This document shows, piece by piece, positions 1,267 through 61,600 of a stretch of DNA of 64,000 nucleotides. Every line of letters starts with the position of its first letter. Position 1 is the first letter of the stretch. Made by a program: the position numbers and the translations under genes. This stretch comes from Candidatus Levyibacteriota bacterium (GTDB lineage: Bacteria; Patescibacteriota; Microgenomatia; Levybacterales; UBA12049): contig JAYRIM010000014.1 of the NCBI GenBank assembly GCA_041906785.1, positions 3,215 to 67,214 of the forward strand, given 5' to 3'. The notes under the pieces are model-generated. The model searched no databases and was not told the DNA's origin. It worked only from the letters and a program-made list of their open reading frames with translations.

Positions 1267-2079
1267 ATGGTTGGTACAATTTATCCTATTGCTTATATTG
1301 TGTTATATGAAAACGGTAAATTTCTTCTCACACAGAGAAGGATAGATGCCGAGGATGATCCTGCTTTCGATGGAAAATGGCAGTTACCAGGTGGAGGATT
1401 AGAAATAGGGGAACATATATCAGCAGTTATACGCAGAGAGGCGAAAGAAGAACTCGGTATTGACGTCGATTTAAAAAGAACGCTCGCACTTACTGAAGTT
1501 ATTAGCCATGGAGATTCCTGGCATGGTCTCTCAATGGCATTTCTTTGTAAACGAGTTGACCCGACCCAGAATATTGTCGTAAATAGTGAAGCACACTCGT
1601 ACGGATGGTACTCGTTAGAGGAAGCTGAAAATTTAGATTTAATGCCGAATATGCTAAAGATTCTTCAGTATATCGCCCGCAATTATCGGTTATTTAAAGT
1701 TGGTGTCTTAGGAGTAATAAAAAAAGATGATAAGTTTCTACTTACGAAAATTCACGCACCAGGTAAAGATAAAGCGCATGGAAAATGGAGTTGTATGATG
1801 GGAACATGTGACATAAATGAAAGTATGACAGATGCATTAATACGTGAGGTTAAAGAGGAAACAGGTCTCGATGTTTCAATTGTCCGTCCGCTCACTCATG
1901 TGGTTGAGATGTATGATTTAAAAATTTTCTCCTTTTTAGTTACCCCTAACGATGATGGTCAGGAAATTAAGCTTAACTATGAGGCGAGTGATTCGGGATG
2001 GTATACGTACGATGAGGCATTAACATTAGATTTATATGGTGATACGAAAGCGATTCTCGAAGAAGCGAATTCTATTTAA
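1267..2079 (+). CDS. tandem Nudix hydrolase (two Nudix domains)
   Basis: Two Nudix boxes (GGGLEIGEHISAVIRREAKEELGI and GTCDINESMTDALIREVKEETGL), each GX5EX7REUXEEXGU-like. Confidence 0.75.
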   Translation: MVGTIYPIAYIVLYENGKFLLTQRRIDAEDDPAFDGKWQLPGGGLEIGEHISAVIRREAKEELGIDVDLKRTLALTEVISHGDSWHGLSMAFLCKRVDPTQNIVVNSEAHSYGWYSLEEAENLDLMPNMLKILQYIARNYRLFKVGVLGVIKKDDKFLLTKIHAPGKDKAHGKWSCMMGTCDINESMTDALIREVKEETGLDVSIVRPLTHVVEMYDLKIFSFLVTPNDDGQEIKLNYEASDSGWYTYDEALTLDLYGDTKAILEEANSI

Positions 2080-2147
2080 TCTTATTTTCCCTCTTGAATT
2101 TACCTCCATATTTTTTTACGATTATATCGAACGACCGTTCTCAATTT

Positions 2148-2215
2148 GTCATGTTGAGCGTAGCGAAACATCTTATGAAAGATCCTTCTCCGCCAGCTGG
2201 CGGATCAGGATGACA
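2148..2215. repeat. family-2 structured repeat (GTCATGYTGAGC...CAGGATGACA), copy 1
   Basis: Shares ends and internal hairpins with 2819-2882 and 47304-47364; the loop carries the perfect palindrome CCGCCAGCTGGCGG. Confidence 0.55.
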
Positions 2216-2236
2216 GACAAATTTTGATTTCCCATT

Positions 2237-2797
2237 ATGACGACACAAGAAAAAATTCTCAAATATATTATTAAACTATATGCCAATGGGGGATTCGAAG
2301 GAATGAGTATGAGACAGCTTGCAAGTAAAGTCGGTATTGTTCAGTCAGTACTCTACCATTATTTCCCAGATAAAGACAGAATGCTTCGATACATGTACGA
2401 TACTATACAAAATAATCTAGAAATAGAACGAACGAAACTACCAATTAAAAAGAATACCTTTGATTTCTTAAAGCAGCGTATTGAATTCCAATTCGATCAT
2501 GCAGAAGAGATAGTAGCTGCTATGAAATACTTCTACAATTATCGTAGAACTTTTAAACGTAATAATATTGGTTTTTTCCCTAAAGAAATGTATGCGTCGT
2601 TTCAGGAAGCTCTTGAGTATGGTATTGACCAAGGAGATATTCCGAACATTGATGTAAAAAGGAAAGCAAAAATCATGACGCATCTAGTCAATAGTATTAT
2701 TCTCGAGTATTTTCCAACGATTCCAAAAGGTTCAGAAAGAGCGAACATCATGCAATCACTGCTTACTATTTTTAAAAAAGATCTTCTAACAAAGTAG
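2237..2797 (+). CDS. TetR-like HTH transcriptional regulator
   Basis: N-terminal HTH-like segment MSMRQLASKVGIVQSVLYHYFPDKD, ~185 aa helical protein. Confidence 0.5.
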   Translation: MTTQEKILKYIIKLYANGGFEGMSMRQLASKVGIVQSVLYHYFPDKDRMLRYMYDTIQNNLEIERTKLPIKKNTFDFLKQRIEFQFDHAEEIVAAMKYFYNYRRTFKRNNIGFFPKEMYASFQEALEYGIDQGDIPNIDVKRKAKIMTHLVNSIILEYFPTIPKGSERANIMQSLLTIFKKDLLTK

Positions 2798-2818
2798 ACC
2801 ATTATCAAAATTGTTGGT

Positions 2819-2882
2819 GTCATGCTGAGCTATAGGCGAAGCATCTTTTCTAAGATCCTTCACATTTCGTTCAGGATGACAG
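2819..2882. repeat. family-2 structured repeat, copy 2 (followed by a T-run)
   Basis: GTCATGCTGAGC..GCGAAGCATC...AAGATCCTT...CAGGATGACA + TTTTTTT. Confidence 0.55.
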
Positions 2883-2971
2883 TTTTTTTCTCTTTCATAT
2901 CTATTACAGGGTTTTTAAGCGTATTTAACGCCATAAAGGTATTATTTCCATATAAACGGAGGATATTCTGT

Positions 2972-3772
2972 ATGGTAAGAAAAAAACAAGTGGTTGGCTT
3001 AAAAATGATCAGTTTACAAGATGGGAAAGAAGTTGGGGAAGTAAAAGATGTGATATATGATCCTAAAAAGAAAAAAGTTGAAGCTCTTATAGCTGAAGAA
3101 AAAGGAATTGTTAAAGGATCAAAAGTCGTTCCATTAGATGAAGTTCATACAATCGGCGATGATGCAGTAACTATCGATTCTGAAGAGCGAATGAAACCCT
3201 TATCGAAAGCGCCAGAGCCAGTAACTAAAGCAGCGAAGTTAAGCCAGAAGGTTGAAGAAACAACAATTGTGACTACTGATGGAAAAGAACTGGGAAATAT
3301 AAAAGATGTGTATTTTAATCCTTTAACAGGTGAAGTTGAAGAGTTTGAAATGCTTAAGGTTAACGAGAAAGGAGGCAAATCAAAAAAAAAGAAAGTCATC
3401 CTTTCTGAGGTATTAACAATTGGTGAAGAAGTTACAGTAGTACGAGGATATGGAGAAAATATTTTTCCTTCTCAGTCCGAGGATGTTTCTCAAACAAAAA
3501 AGAACAATCTATTAGAAGGTACTGACACATCGATAACCACTATTAAAAATTTTGAGAGTCTTGTAAATAAATCTCACGATATACAACCCCACTTCACAGA
3601 AGAAGATAAAAAACTTTATGAAAAAATTGTCGCTCCTAGTACAGCTTCTAGTAGTTCTTCTCTTCAAACTTCATCAGGAAAGGGAATTTGGAGAACATTC
3701 CATGATTGGCTAATCGGTCCTACAATTCAAGAGGCTATCAGTCAAATAACAGGCATTCCAAGAAAAATATAA
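2972..3772 (+). CDS. PRC-barrel domain protein (two PRC-like repeats)
   Basis: Repeated ...DGKEVGEVKDVIYDPKKKKVEALI... / ...DGKELGNIKDVYFNPLTGEVEEFEM... motifs; start moved to ATG 2972 which has a GGAGG RBS; the upstream part of the six-frame ORF 2822..2971 is translation of a repeat element. Confidence 0.5.
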   Translation: MVRKKQVVGLKMISLQDGKEVGEVKDVIYDPKKKKVEALIAEEKGIVKGSKVVPLDEVHTIGDDAVTIDSEERMKPLSKAPEPVTKAAKLSQKVEETTIVTTDGKELGNIKDVYFNPLTGEVEEFEMLKVNEKGGKSKKKKVILSEVLTIGEEVTVVRGYGENIFPSQSEDVSQTKKNNLLEGTDTSITTIKNFESLVNKSHDIQPHFTEEDKKLYEKIVAPSTASSSSSLQTSSGKGIWRTFHDWLIGPTIQEAISQITGIPRKI

Positions 3773-8119: not shown

Positions 8120-8215
8120 ACACAACCGTTTTGTAGAAAGTAGTATGTAGCATGTAGTACGTATTAATCACACATTGTATTTTTTATACTTACTACTTAA
8201 TACTTGCTACATAAT
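8120..8215. repeat. family-3 promoter-proximal repeat (AAGTAGTATGTA ... TACTTGCTAC ... TACTTAATACT)
   Basis: Shares three motifs and an inverted-repeat arrangement with 49095-49185; both lie directly upstream of + strand genes. Confidence 0.45.
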
Positions 8216-8239
8216 ACACGTTGGGAGGGGGGTGAGAAA

Positions 8240-8989
8240 ATGACAAAAACAATTTTCGCTACATTTTCAGAGCGAACAGATGCTGAAGAGGCAATTAATA
8301 AGCTCAAAACTGATGGATTTAATCCCAAAGACATTTCTATTGTTATGAAAAATAGAAAAGAGGGAGAACAATTCGCAGAAGATACCGGTACTGATGTCGC
8401 CGGTGGAGCCGTATCAGGTGCAACGACAGGTGCAGTGTTGGGTGGATTAGCAGGATTACTCGCTAGTTTTGTAATTCCCGGACTTGGGGCGTTCTTTATC
8501 GGAGGCCCTATCGCATCAGCGCTAGGATTAACTGGTGCAGCAGCATCTACTGTATCTGGAGCAGCAACAGGAGCTGTAGCAGGAGGATTACTCGGAGCGT
8601 TAATGGGTCTTGGTCTATCTGAAGACGAAGCTCGAACATATGAAGAAAGTATTAACGAAGGAGCAATTCTTCTTGCGATTCCTGCAACTGATGCAATGGA
8701 ATCCAGAGTGACCGATATCTTAAACGAGTGTGATGCAGATAATATTAAATCTGTTGTCACACAGGAAGATCGGATTGAACGAACGACAAGTAGAACAAGC
8801 ATGGCAAATGAAAACAGAGACTATTCTGATCTACCAACACGTTCATATGCATATGCTGGGGCAAAGGGAGGAAAGACAAAAACGAAAGGACGATCTTCTG
8901 GTAAAAAAGGAGGACGTTCATCGAGTTCTAACAGAGGATGGCATGGTGATTCAGAAGGCCATTCACGAGCAGCAAAAAGAGGAAGGTAA
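8240..8989 (+). CDS. general-stress-protein-like (YflT/17M-like N-domain, Gly/Ala zipper, C-terminal KGG-type basic repeats)
   Basis: Start chosen at ATG 8240 after the G-rich RBS gggagggggg; N-terminus resembles Bacillus general stress protein 17M; central G/A-rich glycine-zipper; C-terminal GGKTKTKGRSSGKKGGRSS repeat. Confidence 0.5.
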   Translation: MTKTIFATFSERTDAEEAINKLKTDGFNPKDISIVMKNRKEGEQFAEDTGTDVAGGAVSGATTGAVLGGLAGLLASFVIPGLGAFFIGGPIASALGLTGAAASTVSGAATGAVAGGLLGALMGLGLSEDEARTYEESINEGAILLAIPATDAMESRVTDILNECDADNIKSVVTQEDRIERTTSRTSMANENRDYSDLPTRSYAYAGAKGGKTKTKGRSSGKKGGRSSSSNRGWHGDSEGHSRAAKRGR

Positions 8990-9728: not shown

Positions 9729-9828
9729 TCTCTCATAGGTTACTTAAGTAAATTAGGTAAGTTGAAATACTTCCTTTTTCGTAACTACTTTACAAAGTAA
9801 AGTTATTGAGATACACTTTTGAAGTTAC

Positions 9829-10779
9829 ATGTTACAAGTTATGAGAGCAGCACAAATACAGAATTACGGTGGGCCTGAAAGTATTACTATTACAGATACT
9901 GTAGAAAAGCCTTCATTAAAGCCAGGACAGATTCTTGTAGAAGTTCATGCATCGGCATTAAATCCATTCGATTCAAAACTTCGTTCTGGAGTATATAAAG
10001 AGATGATACCGCTCCAGTTTCCTTTTATACTTGGTGGAGATTTTTCCGGTGTGATAAATGAAATAGGAGAAGGGGTAACAGAGTATGCTCTGGGAGATGA
10101 AGTATTCGGCACAGCACTAGGTCTAACTGGTGGATCGGGAGCATTTGCAGAGTTTGCGACAGCGAACACAAAAAATATTTCAAAAAAACCAACAAATGTA
10201 TCTCATGTTGAAGCTGCAGCGCTAGTGCTGGTTGGAGTAAGCGCAATCCAAGCTATTGAACAACATATCAACTTGCAACCTAAGCAGCGAATTCTTCTTC
10301 ATGGTGGAGCGGGAGGTATTGGATCCGTTGCTATTCAATTAGCGAAGTCGAAAGGAGCTTATGTTGCTACTACTGTAAGTTTAGACAGTAAATCATTTGT
10401 TCAGCAGTTAGGAGCAGATGAAGTGATTGATTATAAGAATCAGAAATTTGAAGAACTGCTACACGATTATGATGCCGTGTATGATACTGTAGGTGGAGAT
10501 ACAACTGATCGGTCTTTTGCAGTTTTAAAAAGAGGTGGTGTGATTGTGTCAATGCTTGGGAAACCGAATCAGGAGCGGGCGAAAGAACTCGGTATAACTG
10601 CCATTGGCCAAATGACAAACACAAATGCAGAACATCTTTCTCGACTGAAAACATTGATTGAAACAAATGTGATTAAACCCCAGATTGATAAAACATTTCC
10701 ATTTTTTCAAGTGAGAGAATCTTTTACATACTTAGAGACAGGTCATCCTCGAGGGAAGGTTGTCCTCACTGTAAGATAA
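9829..10779 (+). CDS. NADPH:quinone oxidoreductase / Zn-independent MDR alcohol dehydrogenase family
   Basis: HASALNPFDSKLRSG, GGAGGIGSVAIQLAK Rossmann motif, typical MDR length. Confidence 0.75.
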   Translation: MLQVMRAAQIQNYGGPESITITDTVEKPSLKPGQILVEVHASALNPFDSKLRSGVYKEMIPLQFPFILGGDFSGVINEIGEGVTEYALGDEVFGTALGLTGGSGAFAEFATANTKNISKKPTNVSHVEAAALVLVGVSAIQAIEQHINLQPKQRILLHGGAGGIGSVAIQLAKSKGAYVATTVSLDSKSFVQQLGADEVIDYKNQKFEELLHDYDAVYDTVGGDTTDRSFAVLKRGGVIVSMLGKPNQERAKELGITAIGQMTNTNAEHLSRLKTLIETNVIKPQIDKTFPFFQVRESFTYLETGHPRGKVVLTVR

Positions 10780-17189: not shown

Positions 17190-17549
17190 TTAAGCGACAG
17201 TGGAAATACTAAGTTGTTTTTCTATTCGGCCCAGGCGTTTCCGTTGATCCATTTGTTCTCGGTCGAGCAAATCAAGCATACTATCTTGGTCCTTTTTTAG
17301 TGATTTCAACATTTTACTGTGACCTTCAAGCGTTCTGGTATGACCTTCAAGTATTCTGGTGTGACTTTCCAATATTCTCGTATGACTTTCAAGTGTTCTT
17401 GTATGGCTTTCAAGTAACTTAGTATGGTTTCCAAGGATTTTAGTATGACTTTCAAGAATTTTTCCATGATTTTCTAGCTGTTTATGAATAGGCGCTAATT
17501 TTTCGTCAAGTAATTCTGAAATTTGTTGGAGATCATTGGTGTTTCTCAT
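17190..17549 (-). CDS. coiled-coil protein with ~7-8 tandem heptad repeats (LESHTRI)
   Basis: Protein contains ILESHTKILGNHTKLLESHTRTLESHTRILESHTRILEGHTRTLEGHSKML; the DNA has a 21-nt tandem repeat. Confidence 0.5.
   Translation of the reverse strand: MRNTNDLQQISELLDEKLAPIHKQLENHGKILESHTKILGNHTKLLESHTRTLESHTRILESHTRILEGHTRTLEGHSKMLKSLKKDQDSMLDLLDREQMDQRKRLGRIEKQLSISTVA
17305..17470. repeat. intragenic 21-nt tandem repeat (~7-8 units) encoding LESHTRI heptads
   Basis: ttcaagtattctggtgtgactttccaatattctcgtatgactttcaagtgttcttgtatggctttcaag... Confidence 0.75.
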
Positions 17550-22414: not shown

Positions 22415-22453
22415 TTTTTCTTCTTACTTTTGTTGGCAAAAGTAACAAAACCA

Positions 22454-22536
22454 GTGAGCTAGTGAGAAAATGAGCTAAAATTGTTTCATTCTGACACTCA
22501 TTCAACAATTTCTTCACGCATTTTCTCAACGCTCAC
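22454..22536. repeat. MITE-like element, family 1, copy B (83 nt)
   Basis: Same ~19-bp terminal inverted repeats and internal sequence as 976-1116. Confidence 0.6.
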
Positions 22537-22676
22537 AGATATAATTGTTTTTGTAATAGTCCTGTAGTATAATCCTCTGGCTTATCTGTATCTTATAGAT
22601 TTTATCTAAAAAGATTGCTTTTAAGCGCACTTTTACAAGCTAGTGCGTATTACGTGGCCGTTAGGAATATAGTTAT

Positions 22677-22702
22677 GAGTTGTCAGTTGTCGGCTGTCAG
22701 TT
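22677..22702. repeat. CAGTTnTC(A/G)G decamer-family repeat, short intergenic copy
   Basis: GAGTTGTCAGTTGTCGGCTGTCAGTT. Confidence 0.5.
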
Positions 22703-22709
22703 AAGACAA

Positions 22710-33669: not shown

Positions 33670-36015
33670 ATGGTGTTTTTTAGAGTTTTTCAGAATTTTT
33701 GTATATTTCTTTTTTGTTTATATTCTTTGTTATTTCTACCTCGATTCGCTTTTGCTGCAAGTCAGGTGGTAACGAATAATAATAATTCAGGAGCAGGGTC
33801 ACTGCGTCAAGCAATTCTTGATATAGAGTCCAGCGGCTCTGATGGAGATACTATTACATTTAATCTCTCTGCAGGAAACGAGACTATTACTATTTCTTCA
33901 CAATTTGCGCTTATTTGGCAAAAGAATTTTACAATTGATGGTGACAATACTGCAGGAAGTGGTACGAATGTGACTATTCAAGTAACTACGCCGGGCAGTT
34001 CTTCATTCAGAATCTTTGAAATACGACCATATAGCGGAACCTATTTATTTAAAAACATGACTTTGTATGGAGGAAACGTTAGTACTGAGTACGGTGGAAC
34101 TATTAAAGTTTACTCTGGTGACAGTACAGGAAACTTAACACTTGATAATGTAATAATTGATGGATCAAAAGCTATGTATGGTGGTTGTGTCTATGCATGG
34201 GGAACAATGGGAACATTAACTATCACAAACAGCACCTTTACCAATTGTCAGGCTACCAATGCATCGCCTTATGGTGGTGGAGCATTATTTATGCGGTCTG
34301 TCGGTACGATAAATATCAGTAGTTCTTCATTTACTAATAACTCAAGCATTTACCAGGGAGGAGGTATCTATATGTTCGATCAAACATTTACTATGGATAA
34401 AATAACGGTTACCGGTAATTCAGCGAGTAACCAAGGTGGAGGAATATATTTAGATGGGGATAATGCTTTAGCAATTGCTACATTAACGAATTCTACCATA
34501 GCAAATAATACCTCTTCGTCTCATGGTGGTGGGCTTCTTTTATATTACGGAAGAGTGCAGATTACGAACAGTACAATAAGTAGTAATACTTCTTCAGGTG
34601 TGGGAGGAGGATTTTATTCGGGATATGGAAGCCCCTATTTAACTAATGTCACACTTGCAAATAATAATTCTACAGGAGGAACAGCTGATGGCGTGTATCA
34701 TGAAGGTGGCTCTACGCTGTATATGAAAAACACGATTCTTGCAAATAACGGTACAGGCTATGATATGACAAATAATGCTACTGTATCAGATAGCGGATAT
34801 AATATTGTAGAAAATTCTTCCGGAAAAACATTTAATGCGACAGGAGATATAGCTGGCAACCAAGCAAATTTGAACCTTGATAGCACACTGGCTGATAATA
34901 GTACTTTAAATGGGACACAAACATTAGCTCTTGCTTCTGGCAGTGTGGCAATTGATGCTGGAAATTCTACGACATATCAGTCAATAACAATACCTTCTAC
35001 AGATCAACGCGGTTTAAGTAGATCAGGAACATTGGATATAGGTGCTTATGAATATGCAGGAGGGGGAAGTACGCCTACTCCCACGCCTACAAATACACCA
35101 ACACCTACACCGACACCTACAAATACCCCGACGCCCACACCTGCTCCCACAAGCACGCCTACTCCCACGCCCACAAATACTCAAACTCCTACTCCAACAA
35201 ATACCCCTAGTCCTACCTCAACACCTACTCCCACTGTGGTGCAAACTACAAGTACATCTACATCAGAAACTTCTTCAAAAGGAACAGAAACATGTCCTTC
35301 AAGATATGTTGAATGTCCGAATACAGGACCAATATTCCAAAGAGCTCAGTTAGTAACATCAGATGGAGTCTACGCTAGCCATGGACAGTTTTTCCTAAAT
35401 CCGCTTCCAGGCAGTATGGATTTAGTCATAAAGATAGACCAACAGAATACGGTTAACCTTCTAACTAAACAGGTTGATGTGCCAGTGCCTTGGCAGCAGG
35501 GATACAACACAGCCGGAGAAATTTTTTCTTATAATGCTAAGTCAGCGTTTAACGGCTACCCTGTGACGACTATTGATTCTCCTGCGATTATTATCTTACC
35601 ATATGACCCGAATCGTCTGTTCGGTCGCACACCAGATGAATTACGAATAGGGTATTATAACCAAACACTGAAACGATGGGAGATTATTCAGGATAATACA
35701 GTTGTGGATACAGAAAAACATACAGTAGCCAATACGACACGTATAATGACGTATTATGCTGTAGTCTATCCTCGTACGAATATCATTCCGCCTGTTCTGA
35801 AGGCAGCTTCAAAAAAAACAAAAACCCTAGGGGTGAAAACGAAATGTGGAGAATATATAGTGGAAGCTGGAGATTCGTTATGGACTATTGCGGAAGAGTT
35901 TTTAGGAAAAGGGGAAAACTACAAATCAATAAGAGAAAAAAATAAAAAGCAATTTCCTTCCTTAGAGAAATCTACCATGATAAAACCTGGTTGGAAGTTA
36001 CAGGTAGGTTGTTAA
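33670..36015 (+). CDS. secreted right-handed beta-helix (pectate-lyase-like repeat) protein with Pro/Thr linker and C-terminal LysM domain
   Basis: Signal peptide; many NxT/GGG beta-helix rungs; PTPTPTNTPTPTP linker; C-terminal LysM (CGEYIVEAGDSLWTIAEEFLGKGENYKSIREKN). Confidence 0.65.
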   Translation: MVFFRVFQNFCIFLFCLYSLLFLPRFAFAASQVVTNNNNSGAGSLRQAILDIESSGSDGDTITFNLSAGNETITISSQFALIWQKNFTIDGDNTAGSGTNVTIQVTTPGSSSFRIFEIRPYSGTYLFKNMTLYGGNVSTEYGGTIKVYSGDSTGNLTLDNVIIDGSKAMYGGCVYAWGTMGTLTITNSTFTNCQATNASPYGGGALFMRSVGTINISSSSFTNNSSIYQGGGIYMFDQTFTMDKITVTGNSASNQGGGIYLDGDNALAIATLTNSTIANNTSSSHGGGLLLYYGRVQITNSTISSNTSSGVGGGFYSGYGSPYLTNVTLANNNSTGGTADGVYHEGGSTLYMKNTILANNGTGYDMTNNATVSDSGYNIVENSSGKTFNATGDIAGNQANLNLDSTLADNSTLNGTQTLALASGSVAIDAGNSTTYQSITIPSTDQRGLSRSGTLDIGAYEYAGGGSTPTPTPTNTPTPTPTPTNTPTPTPAPTSTPTPTPTNTQTPTPTNTPSPTSTPTPTVVQTTSTSTSETSSKGTETCPSRYVECPNTGPIFQRAQLVTSDGVYASHGQFFLNPLPGSMDLVIKIDQQNTVNLLTKQVDVPVPWQQGYNTAGEIFSYNAKSAFNGYPVTTIDSPAIIILPYDPNRLFGRTPDELRIGYYNQTLKRWEIIQDNTVVDTEKHTVANTTRIMTYYAVVYPRTNIIPPVLKAASKKTKTLGVKTKCGEYIVEAGDSLWTIAEEFLGKGENYKSIREKNKKQFPSLEKSTMIKPGWKLQVGC

Positions 36016-38623: not shown

Positions 38624-38634
38624 ATAATTTTGAA

Positions 38635-38682
38635 GTTACAAGTTACAAGTTACAAGTTACAAGTTACAAGTTACAAGTTATG
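38635..38682. repeat. GTTACAA heptamer microsatellite (~6.5 units) in the fic/rpsF divergent intergenic region
   Basis: gttacaagttacaagttacaagttacaagttacaagttacaagtta. Confidence 0.8.
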
Positions 38683-38836: not shown

Positions 38837-39136
38837 ATGAGATCTTATGAATTAGTATTAGTGCTGAGGCCTTCCTTAAATGAAAAGGACCGAGAGAAAC
38901 TTCTTAAAACCGTTAAAGATTGGTTAAAGGATGTTAAAATTAGTAAAGAAGATGTCTGGGGACAAAAGCCTCTTGCGTATAAAATAAAAAGAGAGGTAGC
39001 AGGATATTATGTTAAATATGATTTAGAGGCAGATCCTTCGGCAAGCTCAGGACAAGGAACCATTTCTTCAGAATTTGAAAAAAGATTAATTAACGATGAA
39101 AATATCATTAGACATTTATTGTTAAGAACGAAGTAA
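38837..39136 (+). CDS. rpsF: 30S ribosomal protein S6
   Basis: MRSYELVLVLRPSL... S6 N-terminus. Confidence 0.9.
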   Translation: MRSYELVLVLRPSLNEKDREKLLKTVKDWLKDVKISKEDVWGQKPLAYKIKREVAGYYVKYDLEADPSASSGQGTISSEFEKRLINDENIIRHLLLRTK

Positions 39137-46057: not shown

Positions 46058-46200
46058 TCAGTTCTCAGTTTTCAGTTGTCGGTTTTCAGATTGCAGTTTA
46101 TCGGTTATTAGTCTTTCAGTTTTTAAATATCTGACAAACTGAAAATGGATAGACTGGTAGCTGACGCTGATAACCGAAAACTGATTACGGATTCTGCCTC
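46057..46200. repeat. CAGTTnTC(A/G)G decamer-family element arranged as a long imperfect palindrome
   Basis: Direct decamer variants (CAGTTCTCAG TTTTCAGTTGTCGG TTTTCAG...) followed by the inverted set (CTGATAACCGAAAACTGA). Confidence 0.55.
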
Positions 46201-47276: not shown

Positions 47277-47303
47277 TGTTTTCATTAGAAGTCATTTTAA
47301 AAC

Positions 47304-47364
47304 CTGTCATGCTGAGCGACAGCGAAGCATCTTGCGTTAAGATCCTTCACTTCGTTCAGGATGA
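47304..47364. repeat. family-2 structured repeat, copy 3
   Basis: Same element downstream of the 45-aa ORF. Confidence 0.55.
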
Positions 47365-47387
47365 CAAAGAAGGTTTTGAAATAAACT

Positions 47388-49070
47388 CTACGTAAGATAT
47401 TGAGAGCTACTCGTATATATTTTTACTATATCTGCATCTGACAATAAACGTATCTTCTTCATGTTTTTCGTGTCCTTAAGATATCGATGGATAATTTTAT
47501 ACATATCGAGGTCAAAAGTATAATTAGTCGATAAATCCGAAGTGCGTAACCCGAAGTTCGAAAAAGAATCTAACTTTGAATTTTGTGCACTTAAAACGTT
47601 TTGATCATTCGGCATTGCTTCGAGTTTCGATAGTATAATTTCTGATGTATCTTCGTTACCTTCTTGATCGATTTTAACACTACCTATAAAGCACCATTTA
47701 TCGATGATAAAATGTTCTGTTATGCCTGTGATTTCATTTTTTTCATCGATAATAATTGGGCCAGTGAATGGCCAAGGTTTTATTTTCGTTTTACTAAATG
47801 CAGTGACGAATCTCGTATTGTAGAACAATGCTGATTCTTTACCAACGCATGCCCCTTTACATTTGTTTAGTCTGTAAGCGAAACAGGCGGTTGACGTTTT
47901 TTCTAGTCCGATTAGTTTCTCACACAATTGATATTCTTTCGAAACATCAGCCAAAAAATTCTTGGCTTGTTTTCTGGATTTAAAGAGGCCTAGTATTGTT
48001 CCTATTTCTCCTGAAGTTATTGTTTGTACAGGAAATAGTTCTATTCCATCATATCCTTTCGTGTTCGTTACTTTTCTTAAAGCGATAAGCTCATGTTTTA
48101 CCCTCAACATCCTATTATAGATAGGAAGTTTTTGCTTTATAAGGGTTGCTTCGAGAAAGAGTGCTCCAAGTTCGCCTGCAGTAACGATAGTTTCAATATG
48201 TTCAACTTGTTGCGCTATAGACATTTCTTTCGTTGATCGAATATCTCCTGAAAAATGTGATAAAACACGATCACGAATGTTTTTACTTTTACCGATATAT
48301 AAAGGAACAGGTTGTAAGTTGTCAGTTCTAGGTTGTGGGTTATCAGTAACAGAACTTTGACTGGTTATTCCATTTACATACTGATGACTGATGACTGACG
48401 ACTGACTACCATACATAATATACACCCCTGGCAATTCGGGAAGAGAATCTATGAGTGACCAAGACAATTTAGTAGGTACGGTTGGTCTTCGTAATGCTAG
48501 ATTTACAGCTTTAAGAAACTCATCTTCAGAAAAGGTTTTTTTTGCATATTGGTAAAAATGCCATAACGCTGACGCATCGTCAAAAGCACGATGTCGCTGT
48601 TCACAGTGAATCCCGCAGCGTTGAATAACAGCATCCAGATTATGATGAGATGCCGTAGGGAAGAGAGAACGAGAAAGTTTCACTGTACAGAGTTGCCTTG
48701 CCTGAAATGGTATATTTTCTCGAAGGAAGGAATGTTTTAAAAAACTATAATCAAATCGTGCATTATGCGCGACAAAAATGCATTCATTGAGAAGTGTGCG
48801 TATTTCATCAGCTACTTCTTGAAATGTAGGTTTATTTTCGAGATCGCGTTGAGTTATACCTGTCAACAGTTCGATTTCAGGAGGGAGATGAGTTTGGGGG
48901 TTAATAAGTGATTGGTATGTCTGTACAAGCTTATTTCCTTCAACTCGGAGAATTCCTATTTCGATAATCCTTCCGTAGGAAGCAGAAGTACCAGTAGTCT
49001 CAATATCGACAAAAGCAAGTCTATCAGGCAGCATGTGTTTGATTTTAACAAGCTTGATTTTGTCCTGCAA
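47388..49070 (-). CDS. DnaQ-like 3'-5' exonuclease fused to a GIY-YIG (UvrC/Cho-like) nuclease domain
   Basis: FVDIETTG exo I motif, HNARFD, later GVYIMYG...LYIGKSKNIRDRVLSHF GIY-YIG motif interrupted by ~28 extra residues. Confidence 0.7.
   Translation of the reverse strand: MQDKIKLVKIKHMLPDRLAFVDIETTGTSASYGRIIEIGILRVEGNKLVQTYQSLINPQTHLPPEIELLTGITQRDLENKPTFQEVADEIRTLLNECIFVAHNARFDYSFLKHSFLRENIPFQARQLCTVKLSRSLFPTASHHNLDAVIQRCGIHCEQRHRAFDDASALWHFYQYAKKTFSEDEFLKAVNLALRRPTVPTKLSWSLIDSLPELPGVYIMYGSQSSVISHQYVNGITSQSSVTDNPQPRTDNLQPVPLYIGKSKNIRDRVLSHFSGDIRSTKEMSIAQQVEHIETIVTAGELGALFLEATLIKQKLPIYNRMLRVKHELIALRKVTNTKGYDGIELFPVQTITSGEIGTILGLFKSRKQAKNFLADVSKEYQLCEKLIGLEKTSTACFAYRLNKCKGACVGKESALFYNTRFVTAFSKTKIKPWPFTGPIIIDEKNEITGITEHFIIDKWCFIGSVKIDQEGNEDTSEIILSKLEAMPNDQNVLSAQNSKLDSFSNFGLRTSDLSTNYTFDLDMYKIIHRYLKDTKNMKKIRLLSDADIVKIYTSSSQYLT
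48311..48410. repeat. decamer-family repeat embedded in frame in the exonuclease/GIY-YIG gene
   Basis: GTTGTCAGTTCTAGGTTGTGGGTTATCAGTAACAG ... CTGATGACTGATGACTGACGACTGAC; encodes the extra residues between the GIY and YIG motifs. Confidence 0.5.
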
Positions 49071-51225: not shown

Positions 51226-52167
51226 TTACTCAGTTTCTTCGAGTTTCTTTTTTGTTGCTTCAATAACTTCAGTTAAACCGTCTCCATCAAGAATATTCGG
51301 AAGGTTATGCCATGACTGACCAATTCTATGATCTGTTAAACGATCTTGAGGAAAATTATAAGTTCGTATTTTTTCAGCTCGCATTCCACGACCAACTTGT
51401 GTAGATTTAAGAGAACTTATTTCAAGATGTTGTTTTTCTACTTCTATTTCCCACAATTTAGCTCTGAGAAGCTTCATAGCTATTTCACGATTCTGTATTT
51501 GAGATCTTTCTGACTGAGATGTTACGACAATTCCGCTCGGCTTATGTGTAATTCTCACTGCACTTGAAACTTTATTTACATTTTGACCACCATGTCCGCC
51601 TGCACGGAATGCTGAGAATTCTATATCATCAGGATTTACATGCAGATCTATATCTTCAAGTTCAGGGAGCATTGAGACTGTAGCCGTCGATGTGTGAATA
51701 CGGCCGCGTTTTTCAGTTGTCGGAATTCGTTGTACACGGTGTACTCCTGCTTCAAATTTCAGCTTACCAAAAGCACCTTTTCCTGCGATTTTAATGACAT
51801 TCTCGTCTACATTCTCTACACGGAATCCTTGGGATTCAGCATAACGGCGGTACATTCTCACTAATTCTTCTCCCCATAATTTCGCTTCGTCTCCACCTGC
51901 TGCTCCTTGCAACTCTAAAATAATATTCCTGGTATCTAGATCATTTTTTTCTTCTGCACTAGATGCAGATAGAGAATCTTCAAGTAGTTTTTTTTGTGCT
52001 TCTAGATCTATAATCTCTGCTTGTGCGAGTTCAATCATCGCAGGATCTGTAAGCAGCTGTTGCGTCTCAGCGATTTTCTGTTCTAACTCTTGGATTTGGA
52101 TCAGTCGGTAATCGTTCATATTGAGGTTTTTGATTGAACGCAGAGGATTTGGTGAAGTATTGTACAC
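51226..52167 (-). CDS. prfA: peptide chain release factor 1
   Basis: GGQ motif RAGGHGGQNVNKV; tripeptide region RIPTTE (PxT-type, RF1) rather than SPF; RTYNFPQDRLTDHRI; start may be the internal MNDYRL (~52119). Confidence 0.7.
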   Translation of the reverse strand: MYNTSPNPLRSIKNLNMNDYRLIQIQELEQKIAETQQLLTDPAMIELAQAEIIDLEAQKKLLEDSLSASSAEEKNDLDTRNIILELQGAAGGDEAKLWGEELVRMYRRYAESQGFRVENVDENVIKIAGKGAFGKLKFEAGVHRVQRIPTTEKRGRIHTSTATVSMLPELEDIDLHVNPDDIEFSAFRAGGHGGQNVNKVSSAVRITHKPSGIVVTSQSERSQIQNREIAMKLLRAKLWEIEVEKQHLEISSLKSTQVGRGMRAEKIRTYNFPQDRLTDHRIGQSWHNLPNILDGDGLTEVIEATKKKLEETE

Positions 52168-52218
52168 CCTTGTCTCGCTTTGCTTGCAAGCGGACTCCTT
52201 CGCTGCGCTCAGTCCGTC

Positions 52219-58383: not shown

Positions 58384-59499
58384 CTATAACTCCTTAAAAT
58401 CCCTTGGGGTATCTGTTAACTGTTTAAGTGTATTATTTTCTATTACAAATAAGTCTTCAATTCTCACTCCTCCATAGTTTGGAATATAGATTCCCGGTTC
58501 TATAGAAAACACCATTCCTTCAGTTAGTATTTGTTTTGACACAGGTGAAAGAGTAGGGGCTTCATGAACTTGTAACCCAATACCATGACCTAGAGAATGG
58601 GGGATGGAGGGGTAGTCTTGGGAGAGAATATGATTTCTTGCGGCGGCATCTATATTTGATGCTATTATCTCCTTAGCTCCAGAGTTGTCGGTTATCAGTT
58701 GTCGGTTGTCAGCTAGATGCAAATGAATATAATCAATTGCTTTTTGTTGGGCTTCTCGAACAACATTATATATGCGTTTTTGTTCATCAGTTGCTTTGCC
58801 AAAAAATAGTGTTCTCGTCATATCTGAACAATAAGATTCAACTTTCACGCCAAAATCCAGTAACACCAGGTCGCTAGTCGCAAGTCGTTTGTCGCCTGTT
58901 TGGTGGTGGGGGATGGCGGCGTTTGATCCAAATGCCACAATTGGATCGAACGATAGTTCTGCTCCTTGTTCTAAAATAAAGATTTTCAGTTTTTTTGCTA
59001 ACTCTTTTTCAGTTATACCAGGTTTTATTTTTGTAAGAATGAAATTAAATCCCAAATCTCCAATACGACATGCTTCTGCTATTTTTTCAATTTCTTTATG
59101 TTCTTTCTGGATGCGAAGCGTGTGTAATTCTGCTGGTTTAGTATCAAGTACTATTTCTTGAATTTTCTTTAATTCATAAACAGTTATATCTTTTTCTTCT
59201 ATCCCTAATGTTTGTATATTGTTTTGTTCGCATAATTCAGTAAACACTTTCTGAAACTGATTTGTTGAAGATAGCTCGATAAGCTTTAAATGTCCTAAAG
59301 CATGTATTGCTGTTGTATATCGGCCGTCAGTGAGAACATATGCTTCTTTTGCTGTTATAACGAGATATGCTTCTCGTTCTTCAACAGAAAAGTTTGTATA
59401 TCCACTTAGATACGATATATTCGCAACAGAGGTGATAAGAAACGCATCAAGTTTCTGTTTGTCTAATAAGCGACGAACTTTTTCGATTCTATTATGCAT
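58384..59499 (-). CDS. pepP: Xaa-Pro aminopeptidase (M24B)
   Basis: Pita-bread fold metal ligands ...DFG..., HSLGHGIGLQVHE, C-terminal ...GVRIEDL. Confidence 0.85.
   Translation of the reverse strand: MHNRIEKVRRLLDKQKLDAFLITSVANISYLSGYTNFSVEEREAYLVITAKEAYVLTDGRYTTAIHALGHLKLIELSSTNQFQKVFTELCEQNNIQTLGIEEKDITVYELKKIQEIVLDTKPAELHTLRIQKEHKEIEKIAEACRIGDLGFNFILTKIKPGITEKELAKKLKIFILEQGAELSFDPIVAFGSNAAIPHHQTGDKRLATSDLVLLDFGVKVESYCSDMTRTLFFGKATDEQKRIYNVVREAQQKAIDYIHLHLADNRQLITDNSGAKEIIASNIDAAARNHILSQDYPSIPHSLGHGIGLQVHEAPTLSPVSKQILTEGMVFSIEPGIYIPNYGGVRIEDLFVIENNTLKQLTDTPRDFKEL
58679..58712. repeat. decamer-family repeat embedded in frame in pepP
   Basis: AGTTGTCGGTTATCAGTTGTCGGTTGTCAG encodes ...ADNRQLITDN... 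Confidence 0.45.
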
Positions 59500-61470: not shown

Positions 61471-61600
61471 ATTCAGTTATCAGTTTTCGGTTATCAGTTA
61501 TCGGAATTTAGGTCACCAGTTATCAGGTTGCCAGTCTGATAAACAGAAAACCGTTCAACTAGTATCTGAAAACAGACAACTGAAGACTGATAACTGAACT
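61471..61600. repeat. CAGTTnTC(A/G)G decamer-family element (direct then inverted units) upstream of dnaB
   Basis: CAGTTATCAGTTTTCGGTTATCAGTTATCGG ... CTGAAAACAGACAACTGAAGACTGATAACTGAAC. Confidence 0.55.

Follow-up and report, generated by a model that had tools for sequence, protein, structure and literature searches.

Among the described bacterial repeats, those of the CGTC-tagged repetitive extragenic palindromic (REP) superfamily (Di Nocera, De Gregorio and Rocco, BMC Genomics 2013, PMC3733652), and among them family CGTC-2 in particular, bear the closest resemblance to the element considered here, a short structured repeat present in three copies in a 64-kb stretch of contig JAYRIM010000014.1 from a Candidatus Levyibacteriota bacterium (the window; 64,000 nucleotides). 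According to that paper, the units carry a CGTC tag, which is often TGTC, a stem of 8-9 bp that starts with AT and has at most one mismatch, a loop of 4-5 nt and a 3-nt tail with the consensus CCA. Dimers predominate, with heterodimers prevailing in CGTC-2 and CGTC-3; spacers often have complementary ends, and the intragenic dimers listed in the supplement are head-out, encoding peptides that start with V-I (GTC ATC) and end with H-D (CAT GAC). The superfamily is reported there from Proteobacteria, Chlorobi, Bacteroidetes, Spirochaetes and Thermotogae, without a known association with any transposase, and the repeats dRS3 of Neisseria and RPE-6 as well as RPE-4 of Rickettsia are stated to be members of CGTC-1 and CGTC-4.

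The REP, BIME and REPIN sequences of Escherichia coli and Pseudomonas, with their REP-associated tyrosine transposases (RAYTs), resemble the present element in being short extragenic hairpins with an unpaired 5' tag, arranged as inverted doublets and presumed to serve as single-strand DNA substrates. They differ from it in the tag, which is GT[AG]G rather than TGTC or CGTC, in the RAYT gene being flanked by its own REPs, and in being species-specific, whereas the present unit is nearly invariant across phyla. The motif was absent from RepRanger (PMC12306157) and from the REP table of a survey of HUH enzymes (PMC6006769), and literature searches with the motif or with the spurious peptides it encodes returned nothing relevant.

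The three window copies are, in our judgement, probably dimers of a REP-type repeat that falls within the CGTC/TGTC-tagged superfamily or is a close variant of it. Such repeats are commonplace in genomes; what is unusual is how widely these are distributed, viral contigs included. All six units of the window begin with TGTC as an unpaired head, the stem starts with A-T and T-A pairs, the 3' tail starts with C, and the units form head-out dimers and heterodimers that often have complementary spacer ends, are intergenic, occur in several phyla and have no linked transposase in the scanned open reading frames (ORFs). The geometry also recalls the 21-nt stem-loop of CGTC-2 (8+5+8), there being nine stacked positions per arm in the present unit and a loop of 5 nt (CGNAG) when the top C-G pair is counted as loop; otherwise the loop is mostly a 3-nt GNA on a 2-bp G+C stem, expandable to 16 nt, in contrast to the published families. 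Against the five phyla reported for the published families, the present one spans at least 11, and viral contigs as well.

The intragenic peptides of the published CGTC dimers back-translate to GTC-AT...AT-C units in the same head-out arrangement as the window dimers. By such back-translation, the Sulfurovum CGTC-2 peptide RHSELVSGS would correspond approximately to CGTCATTCTGAG-CTTGT-CTCAGGATC, which may represent the present unit with Watson-Crick pairs in place of the G.A pairs. The dRS3 and RPE repeats share the GTC-AT...AT-C frame (the Rickettsia CGTC-1 peptides VIPAKAGI and SFPRKRES, as given in PMC3733652, back-translate to GTCATTCCCGCGAAAGCGGGAATC) but have perfect stems of 8-9 bp, another inner sequence and a lineage-restricted occurrence. 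In the fetched loci, canonical CGTC REPs with a perfect stem, such as GTC-ATGCTGAA-CTTGT-TTCAGCAT, occur alongside the present family.

The hairpin unit and its covariation

The copies lie at 2147-2215, 2818-2881 and 47305-47366, measure 62-69 bp and each consist of two inverted units of one hairpin on opposite strands. An earlier inspection of the letters and translations of the window (the sequence-only reading) had placed them correctly to within 1-2 nt and had taken each for one element with two different hairpins; as they are instead two inverted copies of one unit, they constitute REP dimers and not a single bipartite RNA. The window contains the exact sequence GTCATGYTGAGC three times, once in each copy, and TCAGGATGACA has five matches at no more than one mismatch against 1.2 expected, a number attained in none of 100 shuffles. 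A covariance-model search of the window, with a model trained on 75 units from viral contigs and two from the window, detected exactly six full units in the 64 kb, with E values from 9e-9 to 1e-4 (Table 1).

A match to a known RNA family or to a tRNA, named in the sequence-only reading as counter-evidence, was not found: Rfam 15 gave no match over the window at gathering score, Rfam searches around each copy at E <= 10 returned only chance-level matches (E 0.27-3.4) far below the gathering scores, and ARAGORN found no tRNA or tmRNA. A hammerhead reading of the CUGA...GAA segment was also rejected, the core being three nucleotides short and no ribozyme family appearing even at E <= 10.

The general frame of the unit is GTCAT-NN-TGA..GAA-N'N'-ATC, with a length of about 25 nt that reaches about 40 nt where the apex is expanded. 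From 5' to 3' it comprises the unpaired TGTC head, a 5-bp basal stem, a tandem of G.A and A.G pairs, a short G+C apical stem, a loop of GNA type and a C-rich tail. The basal stem is made of A-T, T-A, two freely covarying pairs and T-A, and the third and fourth pairs define the stem type. In the window copies the + strand unit, which is of type GC or GT, reads TGTC-AT-GC-T-GA-GC-(loop)-GC-GA-A-GC-AT-C; its - strand counterpart, of type CC, reads TGTC-AT-CC-T-GA-AC-(loop)-GT-GA-A-GG-AT-C. In the first unit of copy 1 the parts are the TGTC head, the stem AT-GT-T / A-AC-AT, the G.A tandem, the apex GC-GTA-GC and the tail CTT. The stem of this unit contains the exchange of ATGCT..AGCAT for ATGTT..AACAT that had been noted as compensatory, which is real and is one case of a family-wide covariation. 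The apical stem covaries as well: the first units have a G-C pair there, two of the second units have A-T (substituting for the G-C pair in that of copy 2), and T-A plus C-G stand in the second unit of copy 1, where a longer stem is formed by the 14-nt palindrome CCGCCAGCTGGCGG at 2190-2203, correctly recognised before as a loop expansion. The loops of the window units are GTA, GACA, TATAG, GAA, GAAAT and one 12-nt palindromic expansion, those of the family as a whole mostly GNA.

In each dimer the two units point head-outward on opposite strands, differ in stem type and are spaced by 8-9 nt. The whole dimer can alternatively fold into a single long hairpin in which the type positions clash as G.G and C.C. 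Earlier described as inverted complements, the terminal sequences GTCATGCTGA and TCAGGATGAC are inverted but complementary at only nine of ten positions; since the units of a dimer are of different stem type, a G.G clash falls at the type position.

Table 1. Repeat units of the window, with the T run and a candidate relative
Feature	Positions	Strand	Stem type	Apex	Basis
Dimer 1 unit A	2147-2174	+	GT		model 43.5 bits, E 9e-9; sequence
Dimer 1 unit B	2179-2215	-	CC		model 27.4 bits, E 1e-4; regular expression; sequence
Dimer 2 unit A	2818-2847	+	GC	GC-TATAG-GC	model 36.1 bits, E 7e-7; sequence
Dimer 2 unit B	2852-2881	-	CC	AC-GAAAT-GT	model 33.9 bits, E 2e-6; sequence
T7 run, one base (G) past dimer 2	2883-2889	+			direct reading
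Dimer 3 unit A	47305-47333	+	GC	GC-GACA-GC	model 37.9 bits, E 2e-7; sequence
Dimer 3 unit B	47339-47366	-	CC	AC-GAA-GT	model 43.2 bits, E 1e-8; sequence
Candidate seventh, head-less relative (membership uncertain)	52190-52215	-			partial model match 17.4 bits, E 0.034

Covariation was examined in viral contigs with the pattern GTCATNNTGAGC-N(3-9)-CGAANNATC, in which the type positions are free and which yielded at least 120 loci. Among the 162 viral matches listed, 150 have Watson-Crick pairing between NN and N'N', with eight dinucleotide types represented. In an alignment of 77 distinct 28-nt units, 97.6% of the cells pair; the first free pair (7-23) is UA in 29 units, CG in 28, GC in 16, AU in three and UG in one, and is unpaired in none. 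The pairing score of these units was matched by none of 500 shuffles, and no slid register came close to it. In the 75 viral units the search pattern itself dictated the A-T, T-A start of the stem; this start is borne out independently by the six window units and by the 5' arms, on which the search imposed nothing, of the second units of genome dimers. In these second units (n=107), for which only the 3' eight bases were fixed, the free 5' arm is CC-T-GA in 95, the pair over the G.A tandem is G-C in 78, A-T in ten, C-G in eight and T-A in one, and the length varies, by expansion of the apex, between 20 and 49 nt. Being conserved though not imposed by the search pattern, the G.A tandem and a variable apex are properties of the family, and the apical expansion of copy 1 is a normal family variant.

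Folded as RNA, the dimers form a long imperfect hairpin of -25 to -32 kcal/mol (z -2.8 to -6.1; -26 kcal/mol and z -5.1 for dimer 2), and as DNA a similar one with z -3.2 to -4.6. The second unit of copy 1, folded singly as DNA, reaches -9.5 kcal/mol (z -3.6). As DNA, the sequence GCGNAGC forms a mini-hairpin of great stability, and sheared tandem G.A pairs occur in the context 5'-Y-GA-R-3'. The conserved apex of the unit, GAGC-GNA-GCGA, contains GCGNAGC, and both of its G.A steps are of the pyrimidine-GA-purine form (T-GA-G and C-GA-A). These are biophysical motifs and not a genomic repeat family; apex and G.A context would suit folding of single-strand DNA and are compatible with RNA too.

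Distribution and genomic context of the family

The sequence-only reading had named a lack of further copies as counter-evidence; very many were found in genomes and viral contigs. The full heterodimer pattern (a GC- or GT-type unit, a spacer and a CC-type unit) returned at least 120 matches in a genome collection, and those listed represent at least 11 phyla. They include Acidobacteriota, Planctomycetota, Chloroflexota (among them the isolate Nitrolancea hollandica), Bacteroidota (with many loci of Sphingobacterium tenebrionis), metagenome-assembled genomes of Bacillota and Clostridia, Alpha- and Gammaproteobacteria, Desulfuromonadales, Nitrospinota, Fibrobacter, Latescibacteria and Longimicrobiales. 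Over 60 nt, dimer 3 of the window and the Nitrolancea hollandica copy share 92% identity; beyond copy 3, sequence comparison found no window segment that resembles any fetched locus. A few intergenic copies, none of them annotated, are present in records of Bacteroidota plasmids, and no copy was found in records of isolate phages.

In the viral contigs, single units (more than 120 loci) far outnumber dimers (36 loci). An unbiased scan of these 36 loci, with 33 distinct dimers, gave 22 heterodimers and 11 homodimers, and head-out pairs exceed head-in pairs by 11 to five in the viral sample; all three window copies are head-out heterodimers. Three viral contigs carry tandem clusters of three to five dimers (L244 8571-8969, L254 8924-9287 and L252 2252-2499), spaced by about 80-100 nt with one gap of 234 nt in L254; for CGTC REPs, clusters are described as rare. 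The Sphingobacterium dimers at ten loci (L126, L130, L138, L157, L163, L189, L198, L199, L214 and L222) have extra conserved, mutually inverted outer flanks, ATCTTYCCGCAT ... AAAGNNCAAAGA, which suggests a larger lineage-specific composite element.

Each window copy lies downstream of a + strand gene, beginning 67, 20 and 28 nt past the stops of + strand ORFs (copies 1, 2 and 3, respectively). This placement, to which the sequence-only reading had drawn attention, does not extend to the family. With genes called as longest ORFs, the single units of the viral sample show no orientation bias relative to the flanking ORFs (same/same 31, opposite/opposite 27), and the genome heterodimers are distributed near the gap-type background (same 24, opposite 30, convergent gaps 23, divergent gaps 22, intragenic three), with no depletion from divergent intergenic regions. 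The intragenic cases are three of the 125 genome heterodimers listed.

No target-site duplication was found in 153 dimers, boundary direct repeats of k = 2-5 being at chance level. The conserved feature of the boundary is a T (73%) or C (21%) ahead of GTC in these dimers. No transposase was detected among the window ORFs scanned against Pfam (the scan covered the ORFs other than six from 59.5 kb on, ORF 8197-8802 on the - strand and several short ones). No gene was recurrently linked to the copies elsewhere, only generic families and phage structural genes being present near them.

A set of syntenic related phage contigs provides direct evidence of gain and loss, as orthologous junctions are both filled and empty: one gene junction is occupied by a unit or a dimer in six contigs and empty in seven, of which one (L029) carries a single reversed unit overlooked by the strict scan, and other junctions are occupied sporadically. 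In L027 and L242, the junction between the '...YQG..E*' and 'MSKSKIEEGLP' genes holds no hairpin unit and has inverted arrays of another short repeat, AATCTCAA... / ...GAGATT.

Origin of the repeat and competing explanations

The REP-type assignment, put forward in the sequence-only reading and retained here, relies on the TGTC-tagged hairpin units, their covariation and their intergenic spread. A trans-acting factor would read the single-stranded head and the hairpin and copy units into intergenic DNA, the analogy being with the HUH/Y1 enzymes that act on REPs and on the ends of IS200/IS605 elements, and a transcribed copy would act incidentally as a 3' hairpin. On the same analogy, an HUH/Y1-type enzyme is a possible, though tentative, candidate for the mobilising factor.

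Several observations weigh against this explanation. Stem positions 6-7 are conserved G.A/A.G pairs, and with these two non-Watson-Crick positions the unit departs from the strict definition of an 8-9 bp stem in the published superfamily; the tail, CCA in the published consensus, reads CTT in the window units and CTC in the consensus of the present family; and Firmicutes lie outside the five phyla listed for CGTC repeats in PMC3733652. Five of the six units are, as single-strand DNA, no stabler than shuffles (z -0.04 to -0.7) in a nearest-neighbour model, which may give no credit to sheared G.A pairs; covariation nevertheless supports pairing within the unit despite these weak computed folds, because most viral-contig units have no partner. 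Mobility is deduced solely from presence and absence of copies, the mobilising enzyme itself being an inferred factor, and the orientation statistics depend on crude gene calls. Moreover, in one group of related phages all 11 single units are sense-oriented, and although these events are not independent, this leaves room for a role at the RNA level in that group. The set with G.A pairs is distinguished from the published CGTC families by their description in the text and not by their consensus figure, and may already be catalogued; alternatively, it may have escaped the catalogue because the pipeline of PMC3733652 discarded repeats with more than one mismatch.

If the primary selected function were that of a cis-acting structured RNA (a terminator, a 3'-end stabiliser or a processing site), the DNA repeat would merely be its template. 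The position of all three window copies 20-67 nt past + strand stops, the T7 run after copy 2 and the stable RNA folds of the dimers agree with such a function, as do the related phage contigs, in which all 11 single units are sense-oriented and a conserved junction holds single units immediately upstream of a ribosome-binding site, and the phage contig L024, in which dimers lie on both sides of the capsid gene. The lack of orientation bias and of depletion from divergent gaps in the family as a whole argues against it. Only one unit of each dimer transcript carries the G.A strand, while the other would carry U.C/C.U; the G.T and A.C exceptions to pairing, at four and three, are about equal; and there is no Rfam family, a U-run at only one of the three copies and no hit in a terminator scan. 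We therefore regard a primarily RNA-based function as unlikely. The related suggestion that the element is of terminator type is in keeping with the shape of copy 2, which is followed, as had been stated, by a T-run (G + T7), and not with copies 1 and 3, which have none. A strict REPIN, that is, a REP doublet mobilised by a single-copy RAYT (Y1/HUH) encoded elsewhere in the genome, would likewise be built as a doublet and have, in single strands, a hairpin with an unpaired 5' tag, and Y1 classes with 'atypical secondary structures' are described in Bacteroidetes, Planctomycetes and Acidobacteria (PMC6006769), in which the repeat is common. This is quite unlikely given the TGTC tag in place of GT[AG]G, the missing entry in the REP table of that survey, the reported lack of a transposase association in CGTC REPs, the lack of a Y1 domain in the window ORFs scanned or near the copies, and units that are near-identical in viral contigs and across more than 10 phyla, which misfit the lineage-specific co-evolution of RAYTs and REPs. 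The small miniature inverted-repeat transposable element (MITE) proposed in the sequence-only reading, with the two halves as terminal inverted repeats moved by a DDE transposase, accords with the inverted ends TGTCAT...ATGACA, the size of 62-69 bp and the intergenic location. It appears highly improbable, as singles outnumber pairs in the viral contigs, no target-site duplication accompanies the 153 dimers, and the halves are usually of different stem type, each with its own internal covarying hairpin.

A further possibility, which we consider rather unlikely, is that the TGTC head, the G.A hairpin and the GNA apex constitute the recognition module of a non-RAYT system present across most bacterial phyla and phage genomes. 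The system might be a mobilising enzyme or a factor that binds or processes nucleic acids. Such a module would explain how non-coding units of 25 nt, and even heterodimers of 60 nt, stay 80-92% identical between Bacillota and Chloroflexota, as well as the preference for heterodimers that spoil a perfect palindrome. How CGTC-type REPs arise and spread is a matter for which no transposase is known, and the G.A family would offer a good handle on it: the unit is near-invariant over many phyla and easily found with a small covariance model, and its copies in phage contigs, with filled and empty orthologous sites, lend themselves to phylogenetic profiling and to the exact mapping of insertion boundaries.

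Neighbouring genes and further repeats in the window

Copy 1 lies between a NUDIX gene and a TetR-family gene, 21 nt ahead of the start of the latter, and copy 3 in a 111-nt gap (47277-47387) where a 45-codon ORF converges with a DnaQ/GIY-YIG exonuclease gene. Copy 2 with its G and T7 is shaped like an intrinsic terminator of the TetR-family gene (2237-2797) and probably marks the end of its transcript; on the mechanism proposed above it would be a terminator-like structure past that gene. Copy 1, past the NUDIX gene, and copy 3 would be structures that protect 3' ends or stop transcription in both directions, and copy 3 could stop or protect both convergent transcripts. A simple terminator scan reported no site at any copy and none in 1900-3100. 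A promoter-like site with the ATGACA end as -35 box was dismissed, being within chance expectation and having a start that would fall inside the TetR gene. The TetR-family gene, the nearest homologue of which has 40-43% identity, is bracketed by two same-orientation dimers 671 nt apart.

The repeats being non-coding, ORF 2036-2227 is an artefact, and so are the initial 47-50 codons of ORF 2822-3772, as the sequence-only reading had supposed for both; in the gene call of the Logan contig L001, the gene of the latter ORF starts at the position corresponding to 2972 of the window. Domains and genes elsewhere in the window include YflT, Gmad2, a CtpB-like protease and a ychF...rpsF-ssb-rpsR neighbourhood, a combination read here as that of a low-G+C spore-former of the Bacillota.

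The candidate seventh unit (Table 1) lies directly past the rpmE stop, flanked by the L31 and release factor genes, and is predicted to fold as GGACU-GA-GC-GCA-GC-GA-(AGG)-AGUCC. It contains the exact 15-nt core CTGAGCGCAGCGAAG of a repeat unit on a basal stem GGACT/AGTCC, without the GTCAT head, and could be a relic, a relative or a case of convergence. A further weak model match at 39034-39052, antisense within rpsF, is probably due to chance. The neighbouring release-factor ORF (51226-52167, - strand; upstream to 52218) has PCRF and RF-1 domains and begins at position 39 of the PCRF profile, so that the ORF appears to lack the N-terminal part of the protein; the truncated start might reflect the programmed +1 frameshift of prfB/RF2.

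A second intergenic repeat family with a 7-nt periodicity is present at 38633-38680, 46058-46123, 58683-58712 and 61472-61504, and also at 22671-22703, 48310-48342 and 9798-9841. Its members include a perfect AAGTTAC x6.9 upstream of rpsF and TCAGTTT x9 directly past an HtrA-like gene, and elsewhere the family has 14-nt units of the AGTTGTCGGTTATC type. Segments of 45 and 60 nt (families D5 and D8) are repeated with 88-91% identity between 969-1130 and 22447-22550, about 21.4 kb apart. Within coding regions, a 21-nt tandem repeat (x6.7) lies at 17304-17471 in ORF 17190-17549 (- strand), and a Thr/Pro-rich tract of 18-30-nt repeats at 35067-35258 forms part of a 781-aa LysM-domain protein.

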